From an uncultured Candidatus Saccharibacteria bacterium (GTDB lineage Bacteria > Patescibacteriota > Minisyncoccia > UBA6257 > CAYRSR01), in assembly GCA_964427275.1 (NCBI GenBank), contig CAYRSR010000002.1, forward strand, positions 1,956-65,955: DNA of 64,000 nucleotides, read 5' to 3'. Positions 898 through 48,439 of this stretch are shown in pieces; the first letter of the stretch is position 1; every line of letters starts with the position of its first letter. The translations under genes and the position numbers were made by a program. The notes below the pieces were generated by a model, which was not told the DNA's origin, searched no databases, and saw only the letters and a program-made list of their open reading frames with translations.

Positions 898-971
898 GGG
901 CCGTTAGCTCAGTTGGCTAGAGCGTCTGCGTGGCACGCAGGAGGTCAAGGGTTCAAGTCCCTTACGGTCCA
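898..971 (+). tRNA. tRNA-Ala (anticodon GGC)
   Basis: GGGCCGTTAGCTCAGTTGGCTAGAGC...; G3:U70 Ala identity pair present; anticodon loop gtGGCac; T-arm GGTTCAAGTCC. Confidence 0.8.
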
Positions 972-993
972 CAGAAACAAAGCTCAAGCTAAA

Positions 994-2040: not shown

Positions 2041-4445
2041 ATTACCAGATTAATAAGCTTATCTGGAATATAAATTATTTTCTTAATCTTTTTACCTTGA
2101 ATATATCTTTTTATTTTTTCAGAATTTAAAGCTATTTCTTTTACTTCTGATTCAGATAAACCACCTATTACTTCCAATTTGTCTCTCAACTTACCATTTA
2201 CTTGAATAATCAGAGTAATTTTTTCTGCTTTAATTAATTCAGGATTGTATTTAGGCCAGCTTTGAGTAAATATGGATTTTTTATTTCCTAGCCTTTGCCA
2301 TAATTCTTCAGCTATATGAGGAGTAAATGGAGCAATTAACTTTATCAAGCTCTCATAAGTAGACTTTGATATATAAGGCTGTTTTTCTATTTCATTTACC
2401 AATACCATTAAAGTTGAAACGGCAGTATTAAATCTAAAATCTTTAATATGTTCAGTAACCATTTTAATACTTTGATGTAAAAGTTTTTGAATTTGACTGG
2501 ATTCAGGCTTTAATTCTTTAATTTTAGATTGTAATTTCCAAATTCGATTTAAAAATCTGTAGCAACCAACTACACTTCGATCTGACCACTCAGTAGCTTG
2601 TTCAGCAGGACCCATAAACAATTCGTATAATCTTAGTGTATCCGCTCCATATTTTTTGATTAATTCATCTGGCACAACTACATTTCCCTTAGATTTGGAC
2701 ATTTTTGCTCCATGTCGATAAACTGTTCCCTGATTGAATAACTTAGAAAATGGTTCGTCAAAGTCAATAAGTTTCTTATCAAATAAGAATTTAGTAAGAA
2801 ACCTTGCATACAACAGGTGCATTACTGCATGTTCTGCTCCACCAATATACAAATCAACCGGCAGCCATTTTTTAATTTTTGATTTCGAAGCAAATTGCTT
2901 TGAATTTTTTGAATCAATATATCTAAGAAAGTACCAGGAAGAACAAACAAAGGTGTCCATTGTATCAGTTTCACGAAAAGCTTTTCCTCCACACTTAGGA
3001 CACTTTACTTTTACAAACTTCTCACTTTTAGCCAGTGGTGACTTTCCTCCTCCAGCTGGTTTAAAGTCCTTAATTCTGGGCAGAATTACTGGCAATTCCG
3101 ATTCGGGAACTGGAACCCAACCACATTTAGAACAGTGTATCATTGGTATTGGAGCACCCCAGTATCTCTGCCTGGAAATTAACCAATCCCTAAGTTTATA
3201 GTAAACTTCTTTCTTTCCTAGATTGTTTTTTTGCAAATACTGAGCGATTTTTGCTCTAGCTTGTTTGGAAGTTAATCCGGAAAACTTTCCTGAATTTATT
3301 AATATTCCATCCTCAACATAGGCTTCATCTGGAAAGTTAGATTTTCCAGATTTTGGTCTAATAACTTCAATAATTTTTAAGTTATGTTTCCTGGCAAAAT
3401 CAAAATCTCTTTGGTCGTGAGCAGGAACTGCCATAATTGCACCGGTTCCATATTCTCCAAGTACATAGTCAGCCACATAAACCGGCACTTGCTTCTGATT
3501 AACTGGATTTATTGCTAATATTCCTTTTAGTTCAATTCCAGTTTTTGACTTATCTTGAGAAGTTCTTTCAATTTCAGTTTTCTGTTTAGCTTGTCTAATA
3601 TATCTTTTAACCGAGTTAAAGTTTGAAATTCTTGGCTTAAGTGTTTCAATTATAGGATGTTCCGGAGCTAAAACGATATAAGTACAACCAAATAAAGTAT
3701 CAGCTCTGGTGGTAAATACATCAACTGAAAGTTTAGAATTCACAATTTGGAACCGAACAGTAACTCCGGAGGACTTACCAATCCAGTTTCGCTGCATTAA
3801 TTTTATATTTTCGGGCCAATCAATTTTTTCCAAATCTTTCAATAGTCTTTCAGCATATTTAGTAATCTTAAAAAACCATTGCTCAAGGTCTTTTTGTTTA
3901 ACCAGACTACCACATCTTTCACACCTGCCATTAATTACTTGTTCTCTAGCCAAAACAGTTTTACATTTTGGACAATAATTTACAGCTGATTTTTCCCGAT
4001 AAGCTAATCCAGCTTTGTACAATTGTAAGAACATCCATTGAGTCCATTTGTAATAATCTGGAGTTGAGGTATTAATTTCTCTACTCCAATCATATCCTAA
4101 TCCGGAGCTAATCATTTGTTTTTTAATTCGATTAATTGACTTTTTTGTAGTTATTCTTGGATGAATTCCGGTTTTAATAGCAAAGTTCTCGGCTGGTAAT
4201 CCAAAAGCATCCCAGCCCATTGGATGAAGAACATTATAACCTTGCATCAATTTCTGTTTGGCTATCAGGTCAGAAATAGTGTAACCTTTAAGATGTCCAA
4301 CGTGAAGTCCGTAAGCAGAGGGATAAGGAAACATGTCCAAGCAATAAAACTTTGGTTTCTTCGATCTATCTGAAGCTCTAAAAATCTTAAGTTCTTCCCA
4401 ATTTTTTTGCCACTTTTTCTCAATTTTTTGAAAAGGATAAGACAT
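2037..4445 (-). CDS. leuS: Leucyl-tRNA synthetase
   Basis: 802 aa; HIGH motif (HVGHLKGY), KMSKS motif, CP1 editing region and zinc-finger cysteines. Confidence 0.9.
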   Translation of the reverse strand: MSYPFQKIEKKWQKNWEELKIFRASDRSKKPKFYCLDMFPYPSAYGLHVGHLKGYTISDLIAKQKLMQGYNVLHPMGWDAFGLPAENFAIKTGIHPRITTKKSINRIKKQMISSGLGYDWSREINTSTPDYYKWTQWMFLQLYKAGLAYREKSAVNYCPKCKTVLAREQVINGRCERCGSLVKQKDLEQWFFKITKYAERLLKDLEKIDWPENIKLMQRNWIGKSSGVTVRFQIVNSKLSVDVFTTRADTLFGCTYIVLAPEHPIIETLKPRISNFNSVKRYIRQAKQKTEIERTSQDKSKTGIELKGILAINPVNQKQVPVYVADYVLGEYGTGAIMAVPAHDQRDFDFARKHNLKIIEVIRPKSGKSNFPDEAYVEDGILINSGKFSGLTSKQARAKIAQYLQKNNLGKKEVYYKLRDWLISRQRYWGAPIPMIHCSKCGWVPVPESELPVILPRIKDFKPAGGGKSPLAKSEKFVKVKCPKCGGKAFRETDTMDTFVCSSWYFLRYIDSKNSKQFASKSKIKKWLPVDLYIGGAEHAVMHLLYARFLTKFLFDKKLIDFDEPFSKLFNQGTVYRHGAKMSKSKGNVVVPDELIKKYGADTLRLYELFMGPAEQATEWSDRSVVGCYRFLNRIWKLQSKIKELKPESSQIQKLLHQSIKMVTEHIKDFRFNTAVSTLMVLVNEIEKQPYISKSTYESLIKLIAPFTPHIAEELWQRLGNKKSIFTQSWPKYNPELIKAEKITLIIQVNGKLRDKLEVIGGLSESEVKEIALNSEKIKRYIQGKKIKKIIYIPDKLINLVI

Positions 4446-4549
4446 TAATTTCTAATCAGCTAAGTTCTGATGGTTTTATTATATAATAAAATAAACAGAA
4501 AGCAATTGAATATTGAAAACTAGCTTAAAGTTGACTATAGTTAGTTAGT

Positions 4550-5527
4550 ATGGAAAAGAAAAAAGTAGTAACAATTGGTGGTGGAACAGGAAGCTATAAC
4601 CTACTGAGGGGATTAAAAAAATACACTGATAAAATTGAAATTAGTGCAATAGTGACAATGATGGATTCAGGGGGAAGTTCAGGAATACTAAGAGACGAAT
4701 ATGGAGTTTTACCGCCGGGAGACATCAGAAGATGTTTAATAGCCTTATCCGATGAAACTGAAATCCTTAAAAAGCTATTTAATTACAGGTTTCATTCTAA
4801 AAAAGGAAATAGTTTGTCAGGCCATAACTTTGGCAATTTGTTTTTAACTGCACTGGAAAAAATACTAAACAGCGAACAAAAGGCAATTAAGTTTGCTTCC
4901 AAAATTTTGAAAGTAAGAGGTAAAGTATTGCCGGTAACTTTTCAAAGCACTCATCTGTATGCACGCCTGGAAGATGGAACCCTAATTAAAGGAGAATCAG
5001 TAATTGATTTGCCTCGTTCAACTTCAAACTTAAGAATTAAAAGACTATATCTAAAACCTCCGGCAGAGGCAAATCCAGAAGTTTTAATAGCTATAAAACA
5101 GGCTCAGGTTATAATAATAGGCCCGGGAGATTTATTTACCAGTATTATTCCAAACCTAGTAGTTAATGGAGTATCCAAAGCTATTAGAAAATCAAAAGCC
5201 TTAAAAATTTATAACTGCAATATAATGACCAAATATGGTGAAACCAATGATTTTTCAGTTTATGACCACTTGGCTACCATTGAAGAGTATATTGGTTGTC
5301 CTTGTATTGATGTTTTAACCTATAACAGCAAAAAATTGAGGTCAAAGATTTTGAAAAGATACCAACGAGAAAAAGCTAAACCAGTAAAATTTATCCAGAA
5401 TGAATTCAAGTCTAGAAATATAGAAATAATCGGTAGAAATTTAGTTACCGAACCAAATGTAGCCAGGCATGACCCGGAAAAAATTGGAAAACTAATTATG
5501 AAAATAATCTCTAAAAGGTTGAGCTAA
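4550..5527 (+). CDS. YvcK/CofD-family (UPF0052) gluconeogenesis-factor-like protein
   Basis: VVTIGGGTGSYNLLRGLK...IVTMMDSGGSSGILR...LPPGDIRRCLIAL is characteristic of the YvcK/2-phospho-L-lactate transferase fold. Confidence 0.7.
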   Translation: MEKKKVVTIGGGTGSYNLLRGLKKYTDKIEISAIVTMMDSGGSSGILRDEYGVLPPGDIRRCLIALSDETEILKKLFNYRFHSKKGNSLSGHNFGNLFLTALEKILNSEQKAIKFASKILKVRGKVLPVTFQSTHLYARLEDGTLIKGESVIDLPRSTSNLRIKRLYLKPPAEANPEVLIAIKQAQVIIIGPGDLFTSIIPNLVVNGVSKAIRKSKALKIYNCNIMTKYGETNDFSVYDHLATIEEYIGCPCIDVLTYNSKKLRSKILKRYQREKAKPVKFIQNEFKSRNIEIIGRNLVTEPNVARHDPEKIGKLIMKIISKRLS

Positions 5528-5539
5528 AAGTTAAGTCAC

Positions 5540-6445
5540 TTAAGGACTCCAGTTTATGATTATTTCCTCTACTAGCGGAGTAGTTTCTTTGCAGGGATCA
5601 GATTCTAAAATCACTTTATACCTGAAATAGCGATGATTATTATGGTAACTTCGGTTAATCTTTATTGGGAAATTTGGGCCAATTGGCTCATAAACGTCAG
5701 TTTCTAAACCGGTTCCTCCAGGTCCTAGAAACTTCCATTCACCAGTATCACATTGAGGAGGATTGGTAGCTCCATTTGGACAATTTGAGGAGGCAAATTG
5801 AAACTTAACTTTGGTACCAGATGGCTTGTATCCCTTCCACATAAGCGAATTAAATCCAGCTCCTGATTCTATTCCAGTATCGTATACTAAAGAAACAAGA
5901 TAACCTGTTTTTCCAGAAGTAGACCAGGAAGTTTTTACTTTATAATCAATTGGTCCCTCAGCACCAGGATTGTTGCTATTAAAGGAAATCCAGCCAATTA
6001 TATCATTCCAGGCCCAACCCTGGAAGTTTCCTGCAGCATCAATAGTTACTCGATAATTTGATTGGGTGCAAACATTCAAATCACGACAATTAAAGGAAAT
6101 CCAGCCAATTACCTCGTTCCAGGCAAAACCGGATAATTCTCCGTTACAGTTGTTTTCAACTTTAAAGTTAGAACTGCTGCAGATATTTCCATTGGGGGAA
6201 GTTTCACAATCAAGGGCAATATAACCTACACTGGAACTAGCGTATCCTTTAATTTTGTAATCAGTTACTTCCACATTGCCGGTAGAATAGAAATCAATCC
6301 AGCCAATAATATCATTCCAGGCCCAGTGCTCCCCTTCTTCCGAACTAATATTAGTAGCTGCAGCTGCTTGTTTTGTTTCAAATAATAGGCAAATTTGGAT
6401 TATTAAAATAGTTAACAATAGTAATTTCAGTAGATTTTTTTTCAT
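5540..6445 (-). CDS. Secreted cysteine-rich protein with three Trp-rich G[WF]AWN[DE][IV]IGWI[SD]F repeats
   Basis: Signal peptide MKKNLLKLLLLTILIIQICLLF; three ~15 aa Trp-rich repeats encoded by three near-identical ~35 bp DNA repeats (around 5981-6023, 6091-6132 and 6291-6340); many Cys residues. No confident family match from memory. Confidence 0.6.
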   Translation of the reverse strand: MKKNLLKLLLLTILIIQICLLFETKQAAAATNISSEEGEHWAWNDIIGWIDFYSTGNVEVTDYKIKGYASSSVGYIALDCETSPNGNICSSSNFKVENNCNGELSGFAWNEVIGWISFNCRDLNVCTQSNYRVTIDAAGNFQGWAWNDIIGWISFNSNNPGAEGPIDYKVKTSWSTSGKTGYLVSLVYDTGIESGAGFNSLMWKGYKPSGTKVKFQFASSNCPNGATNPPQCDTGEWKFLGPGGTGLETDVYEPIGPNFPIKINRSYHNNHRYFRYKVILESDPCKETTPLVEEIIINWSP

Positions 6446-6490
6446 AATTCTAGTATAATATTATTATACTGAATAAACCATTATCCGTAA

Positions 6491-7408
6491 ATGCGAAGTA
6501 TCTATGATATTAAAGAAAACTTACACTGGATAGATATTCTTTCTCCTTCTCCGCTAGATTTGCAGTATCTGAGACAAAATTATAACTTTCACTCAGTAAT
6601 TCTGGATGAGCTTTTACACCTTTCCAGTCGAGGAAAAGTAGATAGGTTTGAAGACGATTATCTTTACATAGTATTTCGGATTCCGGTTTACGATATTAAA
6701 GAAAAAACTTCAAAATGTGGCGAAATTGATTTACTTATTACCAGAAATAGTCTAATCACTGTTCACTACCAGCCTTTGCAGCCAATTGAAGAGTTTGAGA
6801 GAAAGTTAAAGAATAAAAAATTAATAGAGGAAATCAATGATACTGCCAGATTAACCTATCAGTTTCTGGAAGAGGTTAATCAATTTTCTTTACATCAACT
6901 CCAACGTATTCAGGAAAAAGTAAACCAGGTTGGAGAGCAACTTTTTGCTAAACATCAACAGGATTTACTAGAAAGAATTTCCTGGATTAAAAGAGATTTA
7001 GTTACTATAGGAATGATTGTCCAACCTCAACTTAGGATATTAGAATCTTTACTATCAGTCTGTTCAGATTTCTGGGGTAAGCGCGCTGAAGTGTATTTTT
7101 CAGACTTACTAAACGACTATGGTAGAGTAATTAACTTATTTGAAAGCTTAAAAACTACTCTATCTGATTTCGAAACTACCAATGCCCAACTACTGAACTA
7201 TAAGTCAAATGATGTAATGAAAAAATTTACTGTACTGGCTTTTTTAACATTTCCATTAATGCTGGTGGTAGCAATAATTACTATTCCGACAATTTCTGAA
7301 GCAATTGAAAACTGGATGGGATTAAATGGATTTATTCTATTAATTCTGGGCTCAGTACTAACTATGGGTTTACTAGCTTACATTTTCAGAAAGAAGGATT
7401 GGATGTAG
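6491..7408 (+). CDS. CorA-like divalent cation transporter (two C-terminal TM helices, non-canonical GMN region)
   Basis: 305 aa soluble N-domain followed by two TM helices at the extreme C-terminus, which is the CorA/ZntB architecture. The loop reads ENWMGLNG rather than the canonical YGMNF. Confidence 0.45.
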   Translation: MRSIYDIKENLHWIDILSPSPLDLQYLRQNYNFHSVILDELLHLSSRGKVDRFEDDYLYIVFRIPVYDIKEKTSKCGEIDLLITRNSLITVHYQPLQPIEEFERKLKNKKLIEEINDTARLTYQFLEEVNQFSLHQLQRIQEKVNQVGEQLFAKHQQDLLERISWIKRDLVTIGMIVQPQLRILESLLSVCSDFWGKRAEVYFSDLLNDYGRVINLFESLKTTLSDFETTNAQLLNYKSNDVMKKFTVLAFLTFPLMLVVAIITIPTISEAIENWMGLNGFILLILGSVLTMGLLAYIFRKKDWM

Positions 7409-11414: not shown

Positions 11415-11488
11415 TACCGTTACCGGGATTCGAACCCGGGTTACCTGGCTGAGAACCAGGTGTCCTAGGCCAGCTAGACGATAACGGC
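11415..11488 (-). tRNA. tRNA-Glu (anticodon CUC)
   Basis: D-arm TCGTCTAGCTGGCCTAGGACAC is nearly identical to canonical bacterial tRNA-Glu. Anticodon stem CCTGG/CCAGG with loop ttCTCag; T-arm CCGGGTTCGAATCCCGG. Confidence 0.8.
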
Positions 11489-11543
11489 AACAAAACTAAG
11501 TATAAACAGTAATAACTTAAAAATCAACTCTTAGAAGGCTTTG

Positions 11544-38152: not shown

Positions 38153-39061
38153 ATGAGTCAGGCTAGGAAAAATAAACCAAAAGTAATTGTAATCTTGGGA
38201 CCTACTGCTTCAGGAAAATCAGACTTAGCCATAAAAATAGCTTTAAAATTCAATGGCCAGATAATTTCTGCAGATTCAAGACAGGTATATAAAGGATTAG
38301 ATATTGGTACCGGCAAAGTAACCAAAGCTGAACAAAAATTAGTTAAGCATTATCTTCTAGATGTTTGTTCTCCAAAAAAGATATTTACAGTGGTTGATTA
38401 CCAAAGACTAGCTAAAAAGGCTTTAGATAAAATATTAGCTGATGGTAAGATTCCAATAATCTGTGGTGGAACTGGCTTTTATATTGATACCTTAATTTAT
38501 GACTTAAAATTTCCTGAAGTTGCCCCAAATGCAAAGTTAAGAAAAAGGTTGGAAAAATACTCAGCTGAAAAATTGTATCAAATACTTAAAAAATTGGATC
38601 CTCTTAGGGCAGAAACCATTGACAAAAAAAATAAAAGAAGACTGATTAGAGCAATTGAGATTATAAAGGGTGGAAAAACTATCTCTGAAATTAAAAAGAA
38701 ATCTCCATACCAATTACTAAAAATCGGAATTAAAAGAAGTCGAGAAGAATTGAAAAAAAGAATTATCGCTAGATTGGATAAAAGATTAGCCCAGGGATTA
38801 ATATCAGAAGTAAAAAATCTTCACCGCCAAGGACTAAGTTACAAGAAAATGGAGCAGCTAGGATTAGAATATCGATGGGTAGCTAGATATTTGCAGAAAA
38901 AAATAGATTATCAACAAATGAGACAGAATCTAATTAACAAAATTTATCAGTATAGCAAGCGTCAGATGACCTGGTTCAAAAGAGACAAACAAATTCACTG
39001 GATAACCAGTCAATCTGAAGCATTTCAATTAGTTAAGAAGTTTCTAGAACCCGATTTTTAA
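38153..39061 (+). CDS. miaA: tRNA dimethylallyltransferase
   Basis: P-loop ILGPTASGKS; MiaA fold; 302 aa. Confidence 0.85.
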   Translation: MSQARKNKPKVIVILGPTASGKSDLAIKIALKFNGQIISADSRQVYKGLDIGTGKVTKAEQKLVKHYLLDVCSPKKIFTVVDYQRLAKKALDKILADGKIPIICGGTGFYIDTLIYDLKFPEVAPNAKLRKRLEKYSAEKLYQILKKLDPLRAETIDKKNKRRLIRAIEIIKGGKTISEIKKKSPYQLLKIGIKRSREELKKRIIARLDKRLAQGLISEVKNLHRQGLSYKKMEQLGLEYRWVARYLQKKIDYQQMRQNLINKIYQYSKRQMTWFKRDKQIHWITSQSEAFQLVKKFLEPDF

Positions 39062-39576
39062 GTGTCAATATTTCTTGCACTTACAGTAACTTGAAGGTTA
39101 ATTTTAGCTTCTATTTGAGGAATATTTGGGACAGCTTCTAACAAAATAGTAATTCTAGGAGGAAGTCCATCTCCGGTCTCACAGCCTTTCAAGATAAAGT
39201 CTAAAAACTTAATTTGAACATTGGAAGAAGTAATTGGATAAAAATCTTCGCCAGCTTCACTCCTTTCAATAGCTTGTGAATGTAACCTATAAGTTACTGA
39301 ATTTCCATATTGATTAACAAAATCTATTCTCCCTTTTTCTGGAGAGGAAAAATTGGTTCCGGTTCTAATTTCTCTTACCATCTGCTCTAAAATTTTAGAA
39401 GCATTGTCACTAGCTGCTATTAGTGAAACTATATTTCTTTGAGTTCTCAATCCTCTGGTAAATGCTCCAGTAGCTATAGCAAAGAAAATTGTAAATAAAC
39501 CTAAGGCCACAATCATTTCTATCATAGTGAATCCTCTTTTATTTAATAATTGAAACTTAAAAATTGAAATTTTCAT
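39058..39576 (-). CDS. Minor (pseudo)pilin with prepilin-type N-terminus
   Basis: Class III signal KRG|FTMIEMIVAL; 172 aa. Confidence 0.65.
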   Translation of the reverse strand: MKISIFKFQLLNKRGFTMIEMIVALGLFTIFFAIATGAFTRGLRTQRNIVSLIAASDNASKILEQMVREIRTGTNFSSPEKGRIDFVNQYGNSVTYRLHSQAIERSEAGEDFYPITSSNVQIKFLDFILKGCETGDGLPPRITILLEAVPNIPQIEAKINLQVTVSARNIDT

Positions 39577-39579
39577 TTT

Positions 39580-40065
39580 TTATGGTCTCCAATTGAAAAA
39601 ATGACTTTCAGAATTTACTTCATATCTTCCTCCTTTAATGTTCCAGTAAACTCTAGAGTTTATTTTGACTTCATCTGGGCTAATATTTTCAATTTCAATT
39701 TTTCTTTTAAAGATAGTTTCTTCTCCGGAATCATAACTATAAATTCGGGTATTTGGATCATGCTTAAGAAAATTATCAGTAAAAGGCTCTAAAGATTCGC
39801 TATTATAATCTACCTGGTAAGTTCCATCAAAAATTCCTTCATTCCATGGTCTGAAGTTAATATAGTTAGTATCAATGATGTTTTTCACTATTTCTATTCC
39901 TTCAGCAGCTAAAAATGAACCAATGTAATTTGCTGAGATTACTTTATTTAAAGATAAAGAATGAGAGAGTAAAGTAAATATACCTCCAAAAGCAATACAT
40001 AAAATAGCTAACGATACTGCTGCTTCAATCAATAAATAGCCTGATTTTCTATAATCGTCATTCAT
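39580..40065 (-). CDS. Minor (pseudo)pilin with prepilin-type N-terminus
   Basis: Prepilin motif SG|YLLIEAAVSLAIL; 161 aa. Confidence 0.6.
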   Translation of the reverse strand: MNDDYRKSGYLLIEAAVSLAILCIAFGGIFTLLSHSLSLNKVISANYIGSFLAAEGIEIVKNIIDTNYINFRPWNEGIFDGTYQVDYNSESLEPFTDNFLKHDPNTRIYSYDSGEETIFKRKIEIENISPDEVKINSRVYWNIKGGRYEVNSESHFFNWRP

Positions 40066-40068
40066 ATT

Positions 40069-40611
40069 TTATTCTGGAGTAATTTGACCAGCTCGATTAA
40101 TTTTAATGGTAACGGTATCTTGATGGGCTAAATCTTCCAGAATAACTACTGCTTCAATTTGATCAGGAACAATTTTAGTTTTTGGCTCAGGAGGAATGAA
40201 ATTCACGCTGTCTAAAGTTAGGCTTTTAAATCTAACTCTGAAGTCTAATTGATACTTTTTAACTAACTCTGAGCTGCCGGAATATCTAAAGTCGGAATCT
40301 TTGCAATCATCAGCCAAATCCTGATAAAGAATAAAACTATTTTCTTTGGGAATAAATTCAATTCCATATGCACAAGGAAGAGTTTCCTTAGCATACATTC
40401 CCATAGCCATAGATTTAGCTCTACTTATAGCTCCAATTAACTTGGATTGTTCTCTTAAAAGTAATACCCTTCTTTCTCCAATCCGGCTAAAAGTTATAAC
40501 TACTGCGGTTAGAATTACCATAACAAAGATAACCACTAGCATTTCCAGTAAGGTAAAGCCAGACATTCGATGGTAAAGTTTTAAGTCCTGTATTGTCTTT
40601 AATTCTGACAT
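40069..40611 (-). CDS. Minor (pseudo)pilin with prepilin-type N-terminus
   Basis: Prepilin motif SG|FTLLEMLVVIFVMVIL; 180 aa. Confidence 0.65.
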   Translation of the reverse strand: MSELKTIQDLKLYHRMSGFTLLEMLVVIFVMVILTAVVITFSRIGERRVLLLREQSKLIGAISRAKSMAMGMYAKETLPCAYGIEFIPKENSFILYQDLADDCKDSDFRYSGSSELVKKYQLDFRVRFKSLTLDSVNFIPPEPKTKIVPDQIEAVVILEDLAHQDTVTIKINRAGQITPE

Positions 40612-40632
40612 AAATCTTAAAATGTTTGTTAT

Positions 40633-41505
40633 TTAGAATCCAAATGAGCTAAAGTAAAAACTCAGTATTTGATAGCCAAATAGTCCAGTTAAAACTACCC
40701 CCAAGCTGAAAAATGGACCAAAAGCTAGATAATCCTTTCTATGTTTCTTTTTAGCTAACAGACAAAATAAACCTGCCATTCCCCCAATTAAAAAGGAAAG
40801 CATTAAAGCTAAGATTATATCCGGCCAGCCTAAAATTAATCCTCCGGCAAGTCCCATTTGTACATCTCCCCAGCCCATTATTTTTTCTCTAGAGAAAAAA
40901 ACCATCCCTCCAAAAAATACCAAAGTTAATAAACTTCCAGCTAGGTGATTTAGCCAGTAACTTGAAAACTTTGTAATCATTAAACTAAAATAACCTAGAT
41001 ATGACTCAGGATGCCAGAAGATGGAAACTACTCCTAAAACTATTAAAACCAAAACCAATTCGCCTGGAATTAGTAGGTTTCTTAAGTCAATAATTGAAAC
41101 TAATAAAAGAACTAATAGAATTAAACCCCAGACAGCTGCTAGCTTTAAGTTATTCGTAAAAACAAGAAAACTAATAGTCAACCCTATACCTCCTAACAAC
41201 TCAACTATTGGATATTGCCAAGAGATAGGCTTCTTACAGTGACGACACTTTCCTTTTTGAATCAGAAAACTAAGAATAGGTATTAACTCATACCAGGATA
41301 GCCTGGTTTTACAATAAGGACAGTAAGACCTGGAAAAAAATACTTCTCTTCTAAAAACTGGCTTACCTGGTGAAAATCGTAAGCTTAATACATTAATAAA
41401 ACTTCCTAGAGTAGTTCCGATTAGAAATAGAATTAAATAGTTAAAACTGCACACAATAATTGGGGTCATCACAATCAACGTTATAAACCATTCCATCAGT
41501 ATCAT
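40633..41505 (-). CDS. pilD: Prepilin leader peptidase / N-methyltransferase (A24 family)
   Basis: N-terminal zinc-binding CPYC...CRHC between TM helices; polytopic membrane protein. The ORF 5' end overlaps the pilin gene, so the start is probably an internal Met. Confidence 0.75.
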   Translation of the reverse strand: MILMEWFITLIVMTPIIVCSFNYLILFLIGTTLGSFINVLSLRFSPGKPVFRREVFFSRSYCPYCKTRLSWYELIPILSFLIQKGKCRHCKKPISWQYPIVELLGGIGLTISFLVFTNNLKLAAVWGLILLVLLLVSIIDLRNLLIPGELVLVLIVLGVVSIFWHPESYLGYFSLMITKFSSYWLNHLAGSLLTLVFFGGMVFFSREKIMGWGDVQMGLAGGLILGWPDIILALMLSFLIGGMAGLFCLLAKKKHRKDYLAFGPFFSLGVVLTGLFGYQILSFYFSSFGF

Positions 41506-41881
41506 CAGCTAAAGCTGGGTTGTTAGAATCTTCCAAGGTAGCCCTCAACACATAGTTTTGTTTATCTCCAGATACTCCATACTCATAAGAATAATCAGGA
41601 TATAGCGGGTCATTGGAAATTGTAGTTACTCCAATTCCTGCTCCAACCAATGCTTCTTTTAAAGAAGTCCAGCTATCTGCTCCAGTAATTTCCGGGTAAC
41701 TATTATACTTAACATAATAAAGTTCCAAAGCATTCTGAGTTTCTCTTAAATCTGCTATTCTTCTAGCATCTCTACCTCTAGCTCTAAATCCACCAAGTCC
41801 TACCAAAACTACTGAAGCCAAAAGTCCAATAATTGATACTACAATTAAAAGCTCAATTAAAGTAAATCCTCTTTTTTTCAT
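41441..41881 (-). CDS. pilA: Type IV major pilin
   Basis: MKKRG|FTLIELLIVVSIIGLLASVV N-terminus; C-terminal disulfide pair CDDPNYC; 146 aa. Confidence 0.8.
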   Translation of the reverse strand: MKKRGFTLIELLIVVSIIGLLASVVLVGLGGFRARGRDARRIADLRETQNALELYYVKYNSYPEITGADSWTSLKEALVGAGIGVTTISNDPLYPDYSYEYGVSGDKQNYVLRATLEDSNNPALADDTDGMVYNVDCDDPNYCVQF

Positions 41882-41904
41882 AAAATTTATTTGCTTAGCG
41901 ACCT

Positions 41905-43116
41905 TTAAAACTTCAATGCCAGGTTGTAAATTGGCATAAGAATCGAGGCAAACAGGAAACCTACCATTACACCAATAGCTACAATTAACACTGGTTGAAT
42001 CAATTCAACTAAATTAGTTACAGCATCATCAACTTCTCGAGAATAAAAATCTGAAATCCGATTCAGCATTGAAGTAACCTGACCAGTCGATTCTCCCACT
42101 GAAATTAACTGAGAAACCAAAGGTGGAAAATAGGAAGGAGCTTTAGTTAAAACCTGAGACAATGCCTTACCTTCTCTTATCCCTTTAACAGCTTCTCTTA
42201 GTAAGTCCCTATAAACTATATTACCAATAGTAATTGCAGAAATTTCAATAGCTTGTGCCATAGGTATTCCTCCTTTAATCAAAACAGCACAAGCTGCAGT
42301 AAACCTAACTATTGAAAGTTTTCTTAGTAAAGCTCCTATTCCAGGAAGTCTTAAGGAAATTTCATCAAAAACAATTCTTCCTTCAGGGGTACGAATGTAA
42401 TCAATAACTAGAAAAATAACCAAAGCTATAACTGAGGTAACAAGCCACCACCATTTTATCCCAAATTTACCAATATAAATCAAAGCTTTGGTAAACAAAG
42501 GTAACTCCACTTTTGCTTCAGCAAAAATTGGTTCAATTTGAGGAAATACTTGAGTGACCATTAAAAGCACTACCCCGATAAATAAGACTATCACTATAAC
42601 TGGGTAAATCAAAGCTCCTCTTATTTTAGATGTCAAGACAACTTCTTTTTCATAGTAAGAAGCCATATATTCTACTGCTTCATCTATCCTTCCGGTTACC
42701 TCGCCTGAACGAACCATATTAACAAAAAAACTGGAAAAGATTGAGGGATGCTTTTCTAAAGCTTGGGAAAATGACAATCCAGCTTCAATATCAGATATTA
42801 GTGCTGCAGTAGCTTCTTTTAAATAAGGATTACTAACCTGCCCATAAAGAATTTTTAATGATCTGGATAATGAGATTTTTGATGATAATAAGGTAGCCAG
42901 CTGTCTTGAATAAATCATTAAATCCTTCCTATTTACTTTTTTAAGGAACTCTAAAATTCTCTGAATTAGTCCTTTTTTAATTCTTATTTTTTCTAAACTT
43001 AGAACATACAACCCGTGTCCCTCCAAAATATTTAAAGCAGCTTCTCGAGAAGCAGCAGTTACTATACCAACCTGTAGCTCCCCTGTTTCGGTTCTAGCTT
43101 TATATCGAAACTTCAT
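41905..43116 (-). CDS. pilC: Type IV pilus inner-membrane platform protein (GspF family)
   Basis: Duplicated GspF domain with three TM segments; 403 aa. Confidence 0.85.
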   Translation of the reverse strand: MKFRYKARTETGELQVGIVTAASREAALNILEGHGLYVLSLEKIRIKKGLIQRILEFLKKVNRKDLMIYSRQLATLLSSKISLSRSLKILYGQVSNPYLKEATAALISDIEAGLSFSQALEKHPSIFSSFFVNMVRSGEVTGRIDEAVEYMASYYEKEVVLTSKIRGALIYPVIVIVLFIGVVLLMVTQVFPQIEPIFAEAKVELPLFTKALIYIGKFGIKWWWLVTSVIALVIFLVIDYIRTPEGRIVFDEISLRLPGIGALLRKLSIVRFTAACAVLIKGGIPMAQAIEISAITIGNIVYRDLLREAVKGIREGKALSQVLTKAPSYFPPLVSQLISVGESTGQVTSMLNRISDFYSREVDDAVTNLVELIQPVLIVAIGVMVGFLFASILMPIYNLALKF

Positions 43117-43119
43117 AAT

Positions 43120-44193
43120 TTATTCTCTTTCTAGTAAAATTCTAAGTTCAGATGGATTCAAGGAATATAACTCAGCATTTTCTAAAGAAATTTCCTTTTT
43201 CCTCACCAGATTAGCCAGAGAACGATTAAGAGAAATCATGCCTTCTTCCAGAGAAGTCTCTATAACTAAATCTATCTGAAATGCCTTTCTTTCTCTGATT
43301 AAGTTACGAATAGCCGAATTACAGATCATCACTTCACAAGCTGGAACTCTACCACCTTCAATCTTAGGAATTAATCTTTCTGAAATTACACCAGCCAATG
43401 TGGCTGCTAATTGAATGGTAACCTGAGTCTGTTGAGCTGCCGGAAAACTATCAATTATCCTGTCTATTGTTTGGGAAGCAGAATTAGTATGCAAAGTGGA
43501 AAATACTAAATGGCCAGTTTCAGCAGCAGTTAGAGCTGCTGACATAGTTTCAGGATCTCTCATCTCACCAATCATGATTACATCAGGGTCCTGTCGTAAA
43601 ATAGAACGTAAGCCGGTATGAAAATCTCTAGTATCTTTACCTACTTCACGCTGAGATATTAAACATCTATCCTGAATAAGCATATATTCCACCGGATCTT
43701 CGATAGTAATAATATGTTCAGTTCTAGTATGATTTATCTCATCTAGCATTGCTGCTAATGTCGTAGTTTTTCCATGACCAGCTGGACCTACCACTAAAAC
43801 AAATCCTTGTTTGAGTTTAACAAAATTATGAATAACCGGAGGCAAATTAAGTTCTTTAATTGTTGATATCTTTCTGGGAATAAGTCTCAAAGCTGCAGCC
43901 ATAAAGCCTTGTTGAAAATATACATTTACTCTAAACCTTGCTTTATCCTCAAATTCATAAGCAAAATCAAGTTGTTTTTCTTTTAAAAACTCTTTCATCT
44001 GTTCCTCGGTTAATAAAGCTGAAACTAACCCATTAACTGCTTCAGGAGTTAAAATTGGTTCACCAGACAAAGGCATTAGTGCACCATCAATCCTTAAAGT
44101 AGGATAATAACCTACTCCCAAGTGAAGATCAGAAGCATTTTGCTTTAAGGTGGTTAACAAATATTCTCTTAATTTTTGTCTATAATCAATCAT
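43120..44193 (-). CDS. pilT: Type IV pilus retraction ATPase PilT
   Basis: Walker A GPAGHGKTTT, Asp box, Walker B, His box; 357 aa. Confidence 0.85.
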   Translation of the reverse strand: MIDYRQKLREYLLTTLKQNASDLHLGVGYYPTLRIDGALMPLSGEPILTPEAVNGLVSALLTEEQMKEFLKEKQLDFAYEFEDKARFRVNVYFQQGFMAAALRLIPRKISTIKELNLPPVIHNFVKLKQGFVLVVGPAGHGKTTTLAAMLDEINHTRTEHIITIEDPVEYMLIQDRCLISQREVGKDTRDFHTGLRSILRQDPDVIMIGEMRDPETMSAALTAAETGHLVFSTLHTNSASQTIDRIIDSFPAAQQTQVTIQLAATLAGVISERLIPKIEGGRVPACEVMICNSAIRNLIRERKAFQIDLVIETSLEEGMISLNRSLANLVRKKEISLENAELYSLNPSELRILLERE

Positions 44194-44197
44194 TTTT

Positions 44198-45937
44198 TTA
44201 AATAGTTTGTCTTAATACTTCTTCAATAGTAGTTTCTCCTCTCAGAGCTTTAATAATACCATCCTGTCTTAATGTTATCATTCCTTGCCGCTTTGCTTCC
44301 TGCTCAGCTTTTTCTCTAGAAAAACCCTGTTCAATAATTGAGGCTAGTTGAGAAGTCATTTTAAGAACTTCAAATATACCAATTCTTCCTTTTAATCCCT
44401 TACCCATACACTTGGGACAACCAATTCCTTTATAAAGAACATAAGGCCTTTGATACTTACCAAGTATTTCACTTTTTATTTTTTCCGGTAAGTTGTTTAA
44501 CTCCTGCTCAATGATATCTTGAACTTGCTCAGAAACCTGGACTTCTTTCTTACAGAATGGACAGATTCTGGCTACTAATCTCTGAGCTAGCATTAAAATA
44601 AGCGAAGAAGGTAAAAGAAAAGGTCTGACTTTTAAATCTAACAACCTCGGAATAACTCCAACAGCATCATTTGTGTGAATAGTGGACAAGAGTATATGAC
44701 CGGTTAAAGCTGCCTGAATTGCCAGGCCAGCAGTTTCTTCATCTCTAATTTCTCCGACCATGATAACATCCGGATCCTGACGAACAACTTGACGCAAACC
44801 AGAGGCAAAACTATACCCAATATCTTCTTTGATTTGAGATTGGCTAATTCCTTCAATAAAATATTCTACCGGATCCTCTAAGCTAACTACGTTAACTTCT
44901 TCTTGATTTAATTTCTGTAGTAATGCATATAAGCTGGTTGTTTTTCCAGAACCGGTTGGTCCACTAATCAAAATCATCCCGTAAGGTTTACTAAGGGCTT
45001 CCAAAGTAGCTTCCAAGTTTGGCCCCTCTAATCCCAATTCATATAATCCTTTTAGGCCCACAGTAGGATCCAGAATTCTAATTGCCACCTTCTCACCTAG
45101 AGGTGTAGGGAAAGTAGCTACCCTAAAGTCAATATGTTTTCCATAAATTACAGTTCGGAATCGACCATCCTGTGGAATTCTGGTTTCATCAAGTTTAAGA
45201 TTGGACAAAACCTTTATTCTAGAGATTATTGGGCGATGAAGTTCTGAAGGTAAACTAGAAACTTGCTTAAGTTTCCCATCAATTCTAAACCTGATTCTCA
45301 AATAATTTTGCTGAGGTTCAATATGAATATCAGAAGCCTGAACTTCTACAGCTTCTTTTAAAGTAGAAGCTACAATTTTTATTATCGGTGCTTCTTCTTC
45401 AGCAGAAATTGCTTTTTCCAGTTCTACTACTTTTTGAGTTGGAGGAGCTTTTATTTCCCCAATAACTTGTAAAGCCTTTTCAATCTCAGTCTGATATGGA
45501 GAATACTTTCTCCAGACTTTTTCTAAATCAGATGGGGTAATTAAATATACCCCTAGATTTAAATCCTCTCTTCGAGCAATAAACTTTAAAGCATTTTGAG
45601 CTCGAGTATCATCAGGATTAAGCATTCCAACAATCAAGGTATCACCTTCTATCTTAATCGGAACAACCTTATAAGTTCTGGAAGTATCTTCTGATATAAT
45701 TTTCAATAATCTTGGCTCAATTTCTTCCAGATTAAACTTCTTATAAGGCACTCCCAAATATCGACTTTTTACTTCAGCAATTTTTTGTTCAGGAATCAAA
45801 TTTCTCTCATAAATCAAATCCTCTAAGGATTTAGCTGAAGCACGAGCTTCTCTTAGTAACTTTTGTCCAATTTCTTCTTTAATCAATCTTTCTTCTCTTA
45901 ATAGATTAAAAAGTTCTTTATCTTTCATATAAAGCAA
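44198..45937 (-). CDS. pilB: Type IV pilus assembly ATPase PilB (GspE family)
   Basis: N-terminal GSPII domain; Walker A GPTGSGKTTS; tetracysteine CPFC...CPKC; 579 aa. Confidence 0.85.
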   Translation of the reverse strand: MLYMKDKELFNLLREERLIKEEIGQKLLREARASAKSLEDLIYERNLIPEQKIAEVKSRYLGVPYKKFNLEEIEPRLLKIISEDTSRTYKVVPIKIEGDTLIVGMLNPDDTRAQNALKFIARREDLNLGVYLITPSDLEKVWRKYSPYQTEIEKALQVIGEIKAPPTQKVVELEKAISAEEEAPIIKIVASTLKEAVEVQASDIHIEPQQNYLRIRFRIDGKLKQVSSLPSELHRPIISRIKVLSNLKLDETRIPQDGRFRTVIYGKHIDFRVATFPTPLGEKVAIRILDPTVGLKGLYELGLEGPNLEATLEALSKPYGMILISGPTGSGKTTSLYALLQKLNQEEVNVVSLEDPVEYFIEGISQSQIKEDIGYSFASGLRQVVRQDPDVIMVGEIRDEETAGLAIQAALTGHILLSTIHTNDAVGVIPRLLDLKVRPFLLPSSLILMLAQRLVARICPFCKKEVQVSEQVQDIIEQELNNLPEKIKSEILGKYQRPYVLYKGIGCPKCMGKGLKGRIGIFEVLKMTSQLASIIEQGFSREKAEQEAKRQGMITLRQDGIIKALRGETTIEEVLRQTI

Positions 45938-46214
45938 ACGGATTGGCTCGACCTAACTCTGGAATAGTTAATGGAGTACTATAATCACGGAGGTTTTGAT
46001 AAACTGGATTTTCAAAAATGGATTTAGAAATCAAATTAATTCTAGACATTTCGTGGATTTGTTTAAACTGAGAAGGAATAACCACTTCAATTAAAGGTGG
46101 AGTCTTAAAAAACAGAAAATACACACTCGCACCTAACATCAAAAATATAATTAATCCAGTTACTATTTTTTTAAAATCTAATCCAGGTTTAGGTTCTTCT
46201 ACAACTATAGCCAT
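45918..46214 (-). CDS. Small single-TM protein inside the pilus operon (PilP-like or lineage-specific component)
   Basis: 98 aa with one TM helix; lies between the pilO-like gene and pilB. Confidence 0.4.
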   Translation of the reverse strand: MAIVVEEPKPGLDFKKIVTGLIIFLMLGASVYFLFFKTPPLIEVVIPSQFKQIHEMSRINLISKSIFENPVYQNLRDYSTPLTIPELGRANPFALYER

Positions 46215-46216
46215 AA

Positions 46217-46783
46217 TTATTGAGCTTGATAATAAGTATCGACCGTTAGCTCCTGAACATATAAGTTTTCTTCCGGAACATCTGCTTTTTCCATCTTTAT
46301 ATTAATTAAATCATTAAGCTGAATACTAGTCTCCAAAATCTCTGAAAATTTCTTAATTGCCTCATAAGTTCCAAAAATCTTCATATCAAAACGGAGAGTA
46401 CCTATTCCTTTAGCTATCGAACCTTTTTTAGATGGCTTTATTCCTAATATCTTAACTGACAATGAATTAATTGATACCCCACAGGATTCAGCAACAGTTT
46501 GATATAAGTGAATAGCCTGCGGGATGCTTTCCTCAATTGGTAAAATCTTAGATAAGATCTCTTGCTGCTTTTGAATGTTCTCCTCTTGCTGAGCAACTTG
46601 CATAAATTCCTCAATTATAGAAGTTTGCTCAGTAAGCAGTCTAGTTTGACTTAAAAGCTCTCCTTTTAGTCTCACAATCTCCTGATAGGAAGGAATAACC
46701 ATCTTAATAAATACCAGTATAGCAGTAATGATAAAAATAGCTGAAAGTAAAATTAATAAAATTCTTTTAACCGAAGCTTTCAT
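46217..46783 (-). CDS. pilO: PilO-like pilus assembly protein (single TM plus coiled coil)
   Basis: N-terminal TM, coiled coil, C-terminal alpha/beta domain; gene order after pilN. Confidence 0.55.
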   Translation of the reverse strand: MKASVKRILLILLSAIFIITAILVFIKMVIPSYQEIVRLKGELLSQTRLLTEQTSIIEEFMQVAQQEENIQKQQEILSKILPIEESIPQAIHLYQTVAESCGVSINSLSVKILGIKPSKKGSIAKGIGTLRFDMKIFGTYEAIKKFSEILETSIQLNDLINIKMEKADVPEENLYVQELTVDTYYQAQ

Positions 46784-47340
46784 ATTTTTTGTTCAAATTT
46801 AAACAATTGTTCATTAAATAAAATCATAGTTGAGAAAGTTATTCCTTCTTCACCCTTCTCTGATTCATTTAATACTACTTGCTTTATTAAAGGATTTTGC
46901 TTAAAGACCAGAATCTGTTGAGCTAAATTCTTGTAGGAAAGAGCTATGCCTTCCAGAGTCAAATAATGTTGTTTTAAGTCAGCATCAATTTTAGTAAGAT
47001 AAACCTCTTTTAATATATTTTGCTCCAAAAATGAGAATAAATTGGATGGTTTAATGTGATTTCTAAACAGTTCCTGTACATTAACTAGTTGGGAATAAAA
47101 ATTTATAAGATTTTCTCTCTGTTCGGAGGTTATCCTTTTTTCCAGCTCAGTAATTCTTTTTTCCACCGACTTTAATTCTGAATTTAAAAATGACTTATAG
47201 CCAAATTCAAGAGAAAAATAAAGAACCAAAACCAGTCCTAATCCTAATAAAGAAAACCAGAATAATCTCCAGGGCAAATAGACCGGAATTTTCTCTGGTT
47301 CCAAAAGATATTCCTTTCTAGTTTTCTGATAATCTATCAT
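46780..47340 (-). CDS. pilN: PilN-like pilus assembly protein
   Basis: Short cytoplasmic N-terminus, single TM, periplasmic coiled coil; immediately downstream of pilM. Confidence 0.55.
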   Translation of the reverse strand: MIDYQKTRKEYLLEPEKIPVYLPWRLFWFSLLGLGLVLVLYFSLEFGYKSFLNSELKSVEKRITELEKRITSEQRENLINFYSQLVNVQELFRNHIKPSNLFSFLEQNILKEVYLTKIDADLKQHYLTLEGIALSYKNLAQQILVFKQNPLIKQVVLNESEKGEEGITFSTMILFNEQLFKFEQKI

Positions 47341-47347
47341 AAGCTAA

Positions 47348-48439
47348 TTATATAAACTCTCTAAGGCCAAGTCCAATTGATACTGCTAGGGACGAACCCA
47401 AATCCTTAAGAGCTGGTTCTACTTCTTTTGGATAATTAATTTTACTGATAAAACTTTCAGCTTTAACTGGGACTCCAAGCTTTCTTTCAAAGTATTCACT
47501 TATTCCTAACAATTTAGCTCCCCCACCGGCTAAAATTATCCTTTCTGGCTTCCGACCTAAATTTTCCTTCAGGTAAGCATTTCGAGTTCGTTCCACATCT
47601 TTTATTATAGCATCTAAAATTGGGGTAATCAAACTAGATAGCTCTCTATGCTCTTCTCCACCTAATAAACCATAGCGTTTTTTAAGGTTTTCCGCTCTAT
47701 TTATGTCTATTCCTAATCCTCTGGCTATTGCCCTGGTTAAAGAATTTCCAGCAAGGTCAGTTCGCTCACTATACTTCAAGGCTCCATTGTCAACTATAGT
47801 AATATTGGTAACACATCCACCAATATCTATCAACATGGTTGGAGTAGAACCAATACCTGCTGCTCGAACTAAACTGAGACTTTCTATCTCTAAGGCTACT
47901 AACCTTAACCCAGCTAGTTTAAAAATCTGTCGGTAGATTTCGATTCTTTCATTGGGCATAGAAATAATAAATATCTGCTGTTTTTTTATCCCCCTTTCTT
48001 CTCTCTCTCCAACCTTTAACCAGTCAATGGTTACATCAGAAATTGGTAAAGGAATATACCTTCGGCATTGAAGCGGAATAGCTTTTACCAAGTCACTTTC
48101 AGGCATCATTGGAAATTCAATAAGAGTAGTAAACGCAGCAAATAACGGCAGACTAGCTATAACATCAGAAGTTTTAACATTAGCTTTTTCAAATAAATAC
48201 CTTAAGGTTCTAGCAGTTTCTTTCTTTAAAGGCTTAAGAGAACTGGTTTGAATAGCATTATTTAATCTTTCCAGATAACCATAGGTTTCCAGATAACCAT
48301 AATTTTTAAGATAAGGTCTTCCTCTTACTGGAGAAATTTCAACCAGTTTTAGAGTAACTGTACCTATATCTACTCCTAAATAACTTCTCTTTGGTTTAAA
48401 AATTTTAAATACCATAACAAGGAAATATTTGACTTGCAA
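47348..48439 (-). CDS. pilM: Type IV pilus assembly ATPase-like protein PilM (actin fold)
   Basis: YLGVDIGTVTLKLVEI... actin-like fold; 363 aa. The start may be the internal Met at ~48415. Confidence 0.8.
   Translation of the reverse strand: MQVKYFLVMVFKIFKPKRSYLGVDIGTVTLKLVEISPVRGRPYLKNYGYLETYGYLERLNNAIQTSSLKPLKKETARTLRYLFEKANVKTSDVIASLPLFAAFTTLIEFPMMPESDLVKAIPLQCRRYIPLPISDVTIDWLKVGEREERGIKKQQIFIISMPNERIEIYRQIFKLAGLRLVALEIESLSLVRAAGIGSTPTMLIDIGGCVTNITIVDNGALKYSERTDLAGNSLTRAIARGLGIDINRAENLKKRYGLLGGEEHRELSSLITPILDAIIKDVERTRNAYLKENLGRKPERIILAGGGAKLLGISEYFERKLGVPVKAESFISKINYPKEVEPALKDLGSSLAVSIGLGLREFI

Follow-up and report, generated by a model that had tools for sequence, protein, structure and literature searches.

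Type IV pili (T4P) are the best-supported host-attachment device in Candidate Phyla Radiation bacteria (CPR, or Patescibacteria), and Saccharibacteria are to date the only group in which the tip proteins and accessory proteins of these pili have been studied. In that group, lectin-like accessory domains have been reported for the pilins PilX1 and PilX2 (PMC11623550). In the type IVa pili of diderms, PilC/PilY1 is a non-pilin that is exported through signal peptidase I (SPase I) and encoded among minor-pilin genes; it attaches to PilK, the pilin at the tip, through beta-strand augmentation and stabilizes this pilin (preprint 10.64898/2026.09.18.752573). PilC/PilY1, with a variable N-terminus and a conserved carrier C-terminus, and the modular pilins, with a module grafted covalently onto a pilin, follow a common logic (Pelicic and colleagues, PMC8179133). 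Here, we characterized a gene at 5540..6445 (minus strand) of a 64-kb stretch of contig CAYRSR010000002.1 from an uncultured CPR bacterium, hereafter the window, which encodes the 301-aa precursor of a secreted protein with Trp repeats and a putative jelly-roll domain. We consider it fairly probable that this protein is a Sec-exported, two-domain member of a large unnamed Paceibacteria/CPR family, and that it is a component of the T4P system displayed on the pilus. Judging from the predicted structure, the mature protein of ~272 aa is probably made up of four units of ~37 aa, each with a Trp hairpin (G[WYF]AWNDxIGWISF), a disulfide loop and a YKV strand, followed by a jelly-roll.

The connection with pili was found in the relatives of the gene. 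Open reading frames (ORFs) were called in 80 species-level GTDB loci and in the contigs of individual homologues, and neighbors were labeled by phmmer. In the dominant gene order, one or more major pilins are followed by a 191-aa polytopic membrane protein and by PilB and PilC; a pilin of 162 aa and one of 223 aa then precede the family gene, after which come a 128-aa protein in some loci, a 152-aa protein and a PilM-like protein of 507 aa. At least one gene of this T4P operon adjoins the family gene in 74 of 81 loci. The 223-aa pilin lies immediately upstream on the same strand, or is fused to the family protein, in 60 of the 76 assessable loci; PilB or PilC occurs within four genes upstream in 52/60 loci, and the PilM-like gene within three genes downstream in 56/71. 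The distance from the pilin stop to the start of the family gene is usually 0-15 nt, and the 4-nt overlap seen in 11 pairs suggests translational coupling of the two genes. The 223-aa upstream partner is a true pilin family. It carries the class III motif G-cut-QSLxE (the 162-aa pilin has GFTLIE), many members match PF07963, and the source names include "prepilin-type N-terminal cleavage/methylation domain" and "PulG." The AlphaFold2 (AF2) model of this pilin family alone shows a helix at residues 13-67 and a sheet, with a chain of the XcpGHIJK pseudopilus as the best PDB match (probability 0.99, target-normalized template modeling [TM] score 0.55). The conserved C-terminal ~50 residues of the pilin (QTDWSGG...IDY..TGSI.IQGF) were modeled less confidently, with a predicted local distance difference test (pLDDT) score of 66-74.

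The 152-aa family downstream has the N-terminal consensus GQAALPxVLLIGG..E, lacks Glu at position +5, and is not detected as a pilin by Pfam. Absence of this residue is the hallmark of capping minor pilins of the GspK/PilX type. With the Glu5-less protein on one side and minor pilins on the other, the family gene lies centrally in a block of minor-pilin (tip-complex) genes, and gene order suggests that this location, between the 223-aa and 152-aa pilins, is the ancestral one. When mean pairwise identity was compared over the 21 loci that carry all eight operon families, the values were 0.61 for PilB, 0.54 for PilC, 0.50 for the family protein, 0.48 for the major pilin, 0.40 for the 223-aa pilin and 0.35 each for the 162-aa pilin, the 152-aa pilin and the PilM-like protein, which makes the family protein the third most conserved product of the operon. 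As a separate observation, PF05635 (the 23S_rRNA_IVP four-helix bundle) and PF13366 were found fused in frame to, or beside, pilus-operon genes of some relatives (P0128, P0131, P0149 and P0159 in the pilin family; P0024 and P0040; and L088 at 11425-11784). Small domains of these types are typical of selfish or intervening-sequence genes. The fusions could be mis-merged ORFs or real insertions.

Natural gene fusions also link the protein to the pilus. In 8/81 loci, the family gene and the gene of the 223-type pilin form a single in-frame fusion, and the signal-peptide segment is then replaced by the pilin and a linker. In P0043, for example, the full pilin extends to ...DYTTSTGSLVMIF, continues through the linker TSPTGGSATG, and then enters TIDSTYRYAWND..., which is the mature N-terminus without a signal peptide. 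The layout of such fusions is pilin, a G/S/T linker of ~10 residues, (T)NI[DS] and module. Among the best 150 of 8,951 representative clusters, 37 start with a class III pilin motif, and 29 of these 37 have the DWSGG tail under a strict pattern; in some pilin fusions, the pilin part contains an inserted Laminin_G_3 lectin domain. Such repeated, independent-looking fusions to a minor pilin lead to a concrete hypothesis as to which protein is located on the pilus and which surface may serve in host binding. In a permuted subset, the first half of the C-terminal domain comes after the pilin tail and is succeeded by the Trp domain and then by the second half of the C-terminal domain, so that the Trp domain occupies the same loop as the extra Trp domain of proteins with six motifs. 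These permuted and nested architectures (P0280, P0312, P0317, P0343, P0346, P0355 and P0382; P0002, P0007 and P0018) imply that the Trp domain has its two termini near each other and that the loop around residues 220-236 is exposed. In other members, the module is preceded by F5/8 type C, TIG/IPT, DUF2341, fn3, NHL-propeller, LamG or PKD domains, and in L021 a 732-aa orthologue with an N-terminal extension of IPT/TIG-type domains occupies the same operon slot. In this pattern, a variable N-terminus is joined to a C-terminal module that is conserved, or the module is grafted covalently onto a pilin.

These architectures also bear on a different explanation, in which the module is a non-covalent anchor in the cell wall or S-layer, with Trp repeats that, like choline-binding, GW, SLH or CWB2 repeats, bind the organism's own envelope polymer and either tether surface proteins, parts of the pilus machine among them, or contribute to the passage of the pilus through the wall. 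The C-terminal, conserved position of the module in many multidomain surface proteins with variable adhesin-type N-terminal domains is what such an anchor would show, and a conservation of 0.50, above that of the pilins, would fit an invariant self ligand. The gene also stands alone in the window genome, and aromatic-rich tandem hairpin repeats are typical of wall-binding modules. However, neither a Pfam wall-binding repeat in 80 members nor a Foldseek match to one was found, the operon position is among minor pilins, and fusion to the pilin globular head at its C-terminus in the 37 clusters mentioned above places the module on a filament subunit. We therefore regard a wall anchor as rather unlikely.

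Export of the protein was assessed by conservation over 80 homologues. Residues 1-29 (6359..6445, minus strand) comprise MKKN, a hydrophobic core and AAA, with SPase I predicted to cut after Ala29. The homologues have pre-sequences with a median length of 30 residues, with Lys or Arg in the n-region in 99% and with a strongly hydrophobic core (median 2.8 for the 12-residue hydrophobicity maximum). Ala occupies position -1 in 76/80, and position -3 is Ala, Val or Ile, which is the (-3, -1) pattern of an SPase I signal; neither a class III (prepilin) motif nor a lipobox was found in the pre-sequence in this comparison. The AF2 helix at residues 2-24 corresponds to the signal peptide. Export of the protein through a Sec/SPase-I signal is thus supported by sequence conservation, which also bears out the cleavable-looking signal peptide of the preliminary description. 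A lipoprotein was considered and rejected, since the lipobox is absent and Cys19 is not conserved.

The mature N-terminus, A-T-N-I (residues 30-33; 6347..6358, minus strand), is near-invariant (A in 69/80, T in 73/80, N in 75/80 and I in 74/80 homologues) and provides the first structured residues of the Trp-repeat domain. It bears on another possible role, that of a pilus-dependent secreted soluble factor such as CofJ of enterotoxigenic Escherichia coli (ETEC) or TcpF of Vibrio cholerae, which would dock transiently at the tip by its mature N-terminus and then be released onto the host. Both proteins reportedly provide a precedent for pilus-dependent secretion, and the SPase-I signal, the location in a pilus operon beside a minor pilin and the near-invariant ATNI are all as such a factor would have them. 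However, ATNI lies in a folded domain (pLDDT 97 for residues 31-40), and (T)NI[DS] is kept in the pilin-fused forms, where cleavage is unnecessary. Covalent fusion to a pilin is incompatible with release as a soluble factor, and an enzymatic or toxin-like domain is absent. A released factor is consequently improbable.

The precursor contains nine cysteines, eight of them in the mature protein. Mature members of the family have four, six or eight, always an even number, which fits disulfides in an exported protein. The preliminary description had spoken of a Cys-rich protein with about 10 cysteines; several are indeed present, but the term overstates the count. Two cysteines of the window protein, one per domain, are not conserved in the family: residues 100 (nt 6146-6148) and 285 (nt 5591-5593). 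The window protein also lacks the C-x5-C pair usual in its fourth repeat, and an inter-domain disulfide between Cys100 and Cys285 is possible.

The repeat unit is larger than it first appeared. Three 15-residue Trp repeats had been noted, and these strong motifs are present (the quoted peptides lie at residues 38-52, 106-119 and 143-156), but the family alignment defines a unit of ~37 aa with a Trp-motif hairpin, a C-x5-C loop and a YKV strand (G-[WYF]-A-W-N-D-x-[IV]-G-W-I-S-F-[ND]-C-x5-C-x3-Y-K-V), and a fourth, degenerate copy had been missed. All four are encoded on the minus strand. R1 comprises residues 36-62 (6260..6340) with HWAWNDIIGWIDFY. The degenerate R2, recognized by way of the family consensus, comprises residues 63-101 (6143..6259; GYASSSVGYIALDC-x8-C..NFKV); Cys80 is invariant and Cys89 is kept in at least 90% of homologues, and the one-residue-gap register of R2 against R3 and R4 is our own reading of the sequence. 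R3 comprises residues 102-138 (6032..6142; GFAWNEVIGWISFNC-x5-C..YRV), and R4 residues 139-175 (5921..6031; GWAWNDIIGWISFN..YKVKTSW), the latter without the C-x5-C pair found in most homologues. The remaining residues, 176-301 (5543..5920, minus strand), form a C-terminal beta-sandwich that is probably a jelly-roll according to AF2 secondary structure and weak Foldseek matches. It ends in the conserved ...HNNxRYFRYK...VxxIIINWSP, and its loop at about residues 220-236 (CPNGATNPPQC) is the site at which relatives carry a second Trp-repeat domain.

The AF2 model, built from an 80-sequence alignment, has a mean pLDDT of 93 and a predicted TM score (pTM) of 0.75, and is all beta after the helix at residues 2-24. 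R3 and R4 each form a long strand and a short strand (the Trp hairpin) and then a third strand, while the shorter R1 and the degenerate R2 are less regular; the C-terminal domain starts at about residue 176. Foldseek found no match to the model in the PDB at E <= 1e-3. Local PDB matches with probabilities of 0.85-0.99 over ~130-140 columns were to jelly-rolls (meprin MAM, PNGase PAW, a carbohydrate-binding module [CBM] and the Eph ligand-binding domain); they are weak, all with E above 1e-3, a query-normalized TM-score of at most 0.26 and no sequence similarity. Judged by their length, they most plausibly correspond to the ~125-aa C-terminal domain, for which the model makes a jelly-roll beta-sandwich probable. 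Against BFVD, 15 matches reached E <= 1e-3. The long ones (~275-360 columns), to P22 gp10-like "stabilisation" proteins, were disregarded for their root-mean-square deviation (rmsd) of ~15-20 Å and TM of about 0.2, and the one short match (126 columns, rmsd 7.0) was disregarded as the same weak local match of jelly-roll type. For the N-terminal domain, Foldseek gave no PDB match to a beta-trefoil or beta-prism lectin fold, and the domain has four units, not three. The Trp-repeat domain is thus a confidently modeled beta domain without a fold match in the PDB.

Although the protein had been proposed as lineage-specific, its family is very large. A word-indexed search returned 1,304 homologues, typically of 280-320 aa with ~50% full-length identity, all annotated as hypothetical and all from metagenome-assembled genomes of Paceibacteria type (Wolfe-, Lipton-, Harrison-, Colwell- and Jorgensenbacteria). 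When 1.84 billion cluster representatives were searched exhaustively with a profile, 8,951 clusters (50% identity) across Paceibacteria/CPR were obtained at E <= 1e-3, 4,561 at <= 1e-10 and 524 at <= 1e-30. These comprise a core full-length family and a much larger set that shares the Trp repeat, which is a widespread CPR surface repeat absent from Pfam. The query matched nothing in Pfam or NCBIfam, nor did 80 homologues in Pfam; single-sequence and profile searches of the PDB were likewise empty, and the literature, searched by motif and for accessory proteins of Paceibacteria pili, yielded no account of the motif or family. The preliminary description could not place the motif in a named family, and these searches gave none. 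The protein is a candidate for one or two new domain families, a Trp-repeat domain and a jelly-roll carrier. Some distant proteins have up to ~11 tandem Trp motifs of ~35 aa (P0384, with about 11, P0334, P0383 and L052 at 289-1779); proteins of this many-motif kind also contain PKD or Ig domains, or a membrane anchor at the C-terminus, and one is encoded directly upstream of a pilin-PilB-PilC block.

The composition of the protein is of a surface or lectin type. Mature homologues are acidic (median pI 4.4, net charge -9), and the window protein contains 13.6% W+Y+F and 36% N+S+T+G. An all-beta, acidic, aromatic-rich protein with adhesin-domain fusions in its family agrees with the earlier suggestion of a surface protein, adhesin or carbohydrate-binding module, although that suggestion missed the link with pili. 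Competence pili have been proposed for CPR bacteria; a DNA-binding role was rejected here on account of the acidity of the mature proteins.

The near-identity of the repeats at the DNA level had been taken as a sign of recent intragenic duplication or concerted evolution, with potential for variation in repeat number, in a lineage-specific adhesin. A 42-nt unit does occur three times, at 5978-6019 (in R4), 6089-6130 (in R3) and 6287-6328 (in R1), but near-identity applies to two of the three, since the second copy is 88% and the third only 79% identical to the first. The 20-mer said to recur at 5981 and 6091 has exactly two occurrences in the window, with 0.03 expected from shuffles; the first position is correct and the second is really 6092. 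Two of the repeats share an exact match of 23 nt, and family-wide the repeats share modestly more synonymous codons than expected (554 vs. 440), both of which speak for a recent origin. In contrast, core identity between R3 and R4 is 0.66 within a protein and equally 0.66 between species, whereas orthologous cores are more similar across species (0.77 for R3-R3 and 0.79 for R4-R4). Whole units give 0.47 within proteins vs. 0.47 between species, and the linkers, which are position-specific, 0.26 vs. 0.25. This position-specificity across species indicates that the duplication predates the family and that concerted evolution is absent at the protein level. Motif number does not vary by slippage of single units either: it is three in 88 of 120 homologues and five to seven in 22 of 120, where a whole second repeat domain is carried in the loop of the C-terminal domain.

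The shared codons have a simpler source. In the long ORFs of the window, the codon before TGG ends in C in 63 of 109 cases, compared to 10% overall, and Gly before Trp is GGC in 8/10 cases, also against 10% overall, so the rare codons that the repeats share in this 34% GC genome (GCC-TGG and GGC-TGG) are explained by a genome-wide context bias. With Trp and pre-Trp positions excluded, R3 and R4 share five of six synonymous codons (3.1 expected), and 17% of repeat pairs in the family show an excess at least as large, so that the gene is no outlier. The DNA identity of the repeats follows from conservation of the motif, the single codon of Trp and the NNC-before-TGG bias. Taken together with a family that extends over thousands of clusters, these results make a lineage-specific adhesin with recently duplicated or homogenized repeats of variable number highly unlikely. 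More generally, near-identical short DNA repeats in an AT-rich genome can stem from motif conservation and codon context, and the NNC-before-TGG bias can yield spurious "conserved" DNA repeats around Trp motifs.

If the favored reading of a pilus-displayed component is correct, the mature protein, after export and SPase-I cleavage, would associate with the minor pilin encoded just upstream. Docking would be non-covalent and most simply on the conserved C-terminal "QTDWSGG..." tail of the 223-aa pilin, because the fusions join this tail to the module through only ~10 residues. The protein would then be carried on the minor-pilin complex at the pilus tip, where it may serve as a conserved carrier or as a ligand-binding module, probably for glycans, and possibly aid pilus priming. 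A bolder extension, which we put forward only tentatively, is that the family is the missing tip protein of monoderm-type Paceibacteria pili: a PilY1-independent carrier module of novel structure that docks on the DWSGG tail of a minor pilin, is required for priming, has a new Trp-ladder glycan-binding fold and mediates the initial contact between these episymbionts and their hosts, whether bacteria or archaea. In that case, the ~37-aa Trp repeat, with more than 4,500 clusters, would be a major unrecognized surface-binding repeat of CPR bacteria.

Several observations weigh against a pilus-displayed component. Both termini of the AF2 monomer are ordered (pLDDT 95-98), with no disordered plug of the PilC type evident. 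High conservation speaks against a fast-evolving host-specific adhesin and is equally compatible with a structural, carrier or priming role and with a (glycan) ligand that is widely shared. Composition (pI ~4.4, 13.6% aromatic residues) and the weak jelly-roll similarity are the only indications of ligand binding. Most directly, the window gene is not in a pilus operon but 33 kb from the T4P cluster of the same contig, and the 64-kb window contains neither a 223-type pilin with the DWSGG tail nor a Glu5-less pilin of the 152-aa type. Its detached context recurs in 7/81 loci, the closest relatives included.

The T4P cluster in question (39058..48439, minus strand) is complete according to a Pfam scan and would be the candidate partner system. 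It comprises, all on the minus strand, PilM (47348-48439), PilN (46780-47340), PilO (46217-46783), PilB (44198-45937), PilT (43120-44193), PilC (41905-43116), a major pilin (41441-41881) that overlaps PilD (40633-41505), and three pilin-like genes (40069-40611, 39580-40065 and 39058-39576), an order that differs from the canonical Paceibacteria operon with the family gene. Profiles of the 162-aa and 223-aa pilins match two of the pilin-like genes, 40069-40611 (E 8e-11) and 39580-40065 (E 7e-6); the latter match is confined to the region of the N-terminal helix, and the protein has no DWSGG tail. Neither a DWSGG motif nor another Trp-motif protein occurs anywhere in the 64 kb.

It is thus conceivable that in this genome the gene has been uncoupled from pili and encodes a free-standing secreted lectin or adhesin descended from a pilus-operon gene. 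The detached, monocistronic context with its own promoter-like site, the lack of a DWSGG-tail pilin in the window, the same context in the closest relatives, and the loss of the R4 disulfide with the presence of two unusual extra cysteines would all agree with this. On the other hand, the ORF shows no disruption and every family-invariant residue is retained, a T4P cluster is present on the same contig, and the window offers a view of only 64 kb of the genome. To such an uncoupling we give little probability, and display on a pilus remains the favored explanation for the window protein as well.

The surroundings of the gene suggest how it became detached. The context DnaB, CorA, gene, ... leucyl-tRNA synthetase (LeuRS), 288-aa protein and HtrA is common to the closest relative (P0002) and five GTDB loci, and in L003, L005, L028 and L059 LeuRS follows directly after the pilus operon. 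A succession of LeuRS, an uncharacterized protein of ~290-300 aa and sometimes HtrA was observed after the pilus operon of relatives and also around the window gene (913-6445) and in L088. The LeuRS/HtrA flanks look like a synteny remnant of operon break-up, and in the simplest history, the window lineage lost the pilus genes from the ancestral site or had them moved away, and the gene remained beside leuS.

The gene itself (stop codon at 5540-5542) is monocistronic in the window, divergent from corA and convergent with cofD. Its placement in the preliminary description, as a 301-aa ORF between yvcK-like and corA-like genes, was confirmed by matches of the neighbors to PF01933 (CofD/YvcK-like) and PF01544 (CorA). 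Farther to the left are LeuRS and an HtrA-like protease, and farther to the right cysteinyl-tRNA synthetase, DnaB and RecR. A database protein (P0001) is 100% identical to the ORF product. Just 5' of the ATG lies a putative sigma-70-like promoter (TTTACG-17-TATAAT; 6463..6491, minus strand) with 10/12 consensus matches; it is a consensus match only, and the regional count of such sites is not above the shuffled expectation. A 52-aa ORF at 6066-6224 (plus strand) runs antisense to the repeats; it is most likely not a gene but a side effect of the repeats encoded on the opposite strand.

Among known wall-binding proteins, the choline-binding repeats (CW_binding_1) and GW modules resemble the family in their tandem beta-hairpins rich in Trp and Gly and in their extracellular, often C-terminal location. 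The family differs from them in its motif, in the length of its unit (37 aa with a disulfide loop) and in its association with a pilus operon, and the Pfam profiles of CW_binding_1, GW, SLH, LysM and SH3b gave no match with the query (E up to 10) or with 80 members (E up to 1). The jelly-roll and galactose-binding-like sandwiches (MAM, PAW, CBM and LamG) have a local Foldseek likeness to the C-terminal ~125 aa that does not establish membership. CofJ and TcpF reportedly have a flexible N-terminal segment that binds the tip minor pilin; the N-terminus of the family protein is ordered in the monomer model.

The modular type IV pilins are closer in layout. They include PilB (with a von Willebrand factor A domain) and PilC (with a lectin domain) of Streptococcus sanguinis, CofB of ETEC, and PilX1/PilX2 of Saccharibacteria, and the pilin-fused clusters (37 of the best 150) are built in the same way, some of them likewise bearing a lectin in the form of the Laminin_G_3 insert. 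In contrast, the window protein, like most of the family, is a polypeptide of its own with a Sec signal, and the module grafted in the fusions is a domain that is not known outside the family.

The most extensive parallel is with PilC/PilY1 (IPR008707/PF05567). Like it, the family has an SPase-I signal in place of a prepilin signal, its gene is found among minor-pilin genes (60/76 loci; the window copy is instead between cofD and corA), and a conserved C-terminal module is combined with variable adhesin-type N-terminal extensions in relatives. The family is likewise more conserved than the pilins, which is compatible with both priming and display. The differences are substantial, however. The query and 80 homologues have no match to PF05567, and no PilY1 beta-propeller occurs among the Foldseek PDB matches; PilC/PilY1 is about 1,000 aa in length and the family protein ~270 aa; and the disordered C-terminal plug of PilC/PilY1 contrasts with an ordered strand at residues 291-300 (pLDDT 95-98 in the monomer model). 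PilC/PilY1 belongs to diderm hosts and the family to monoderm-like CPR hosts, and the probable partner pilin of the family has a conserved C-terminal tail of its own. The lack of a propeller and of a disordered plug excludes membership in the PilC/PilY1 family. By analogy, the protein would be a functional counterpart of PilC/PilY1, or of the accessory module of a modular pilin, but not a homologue.

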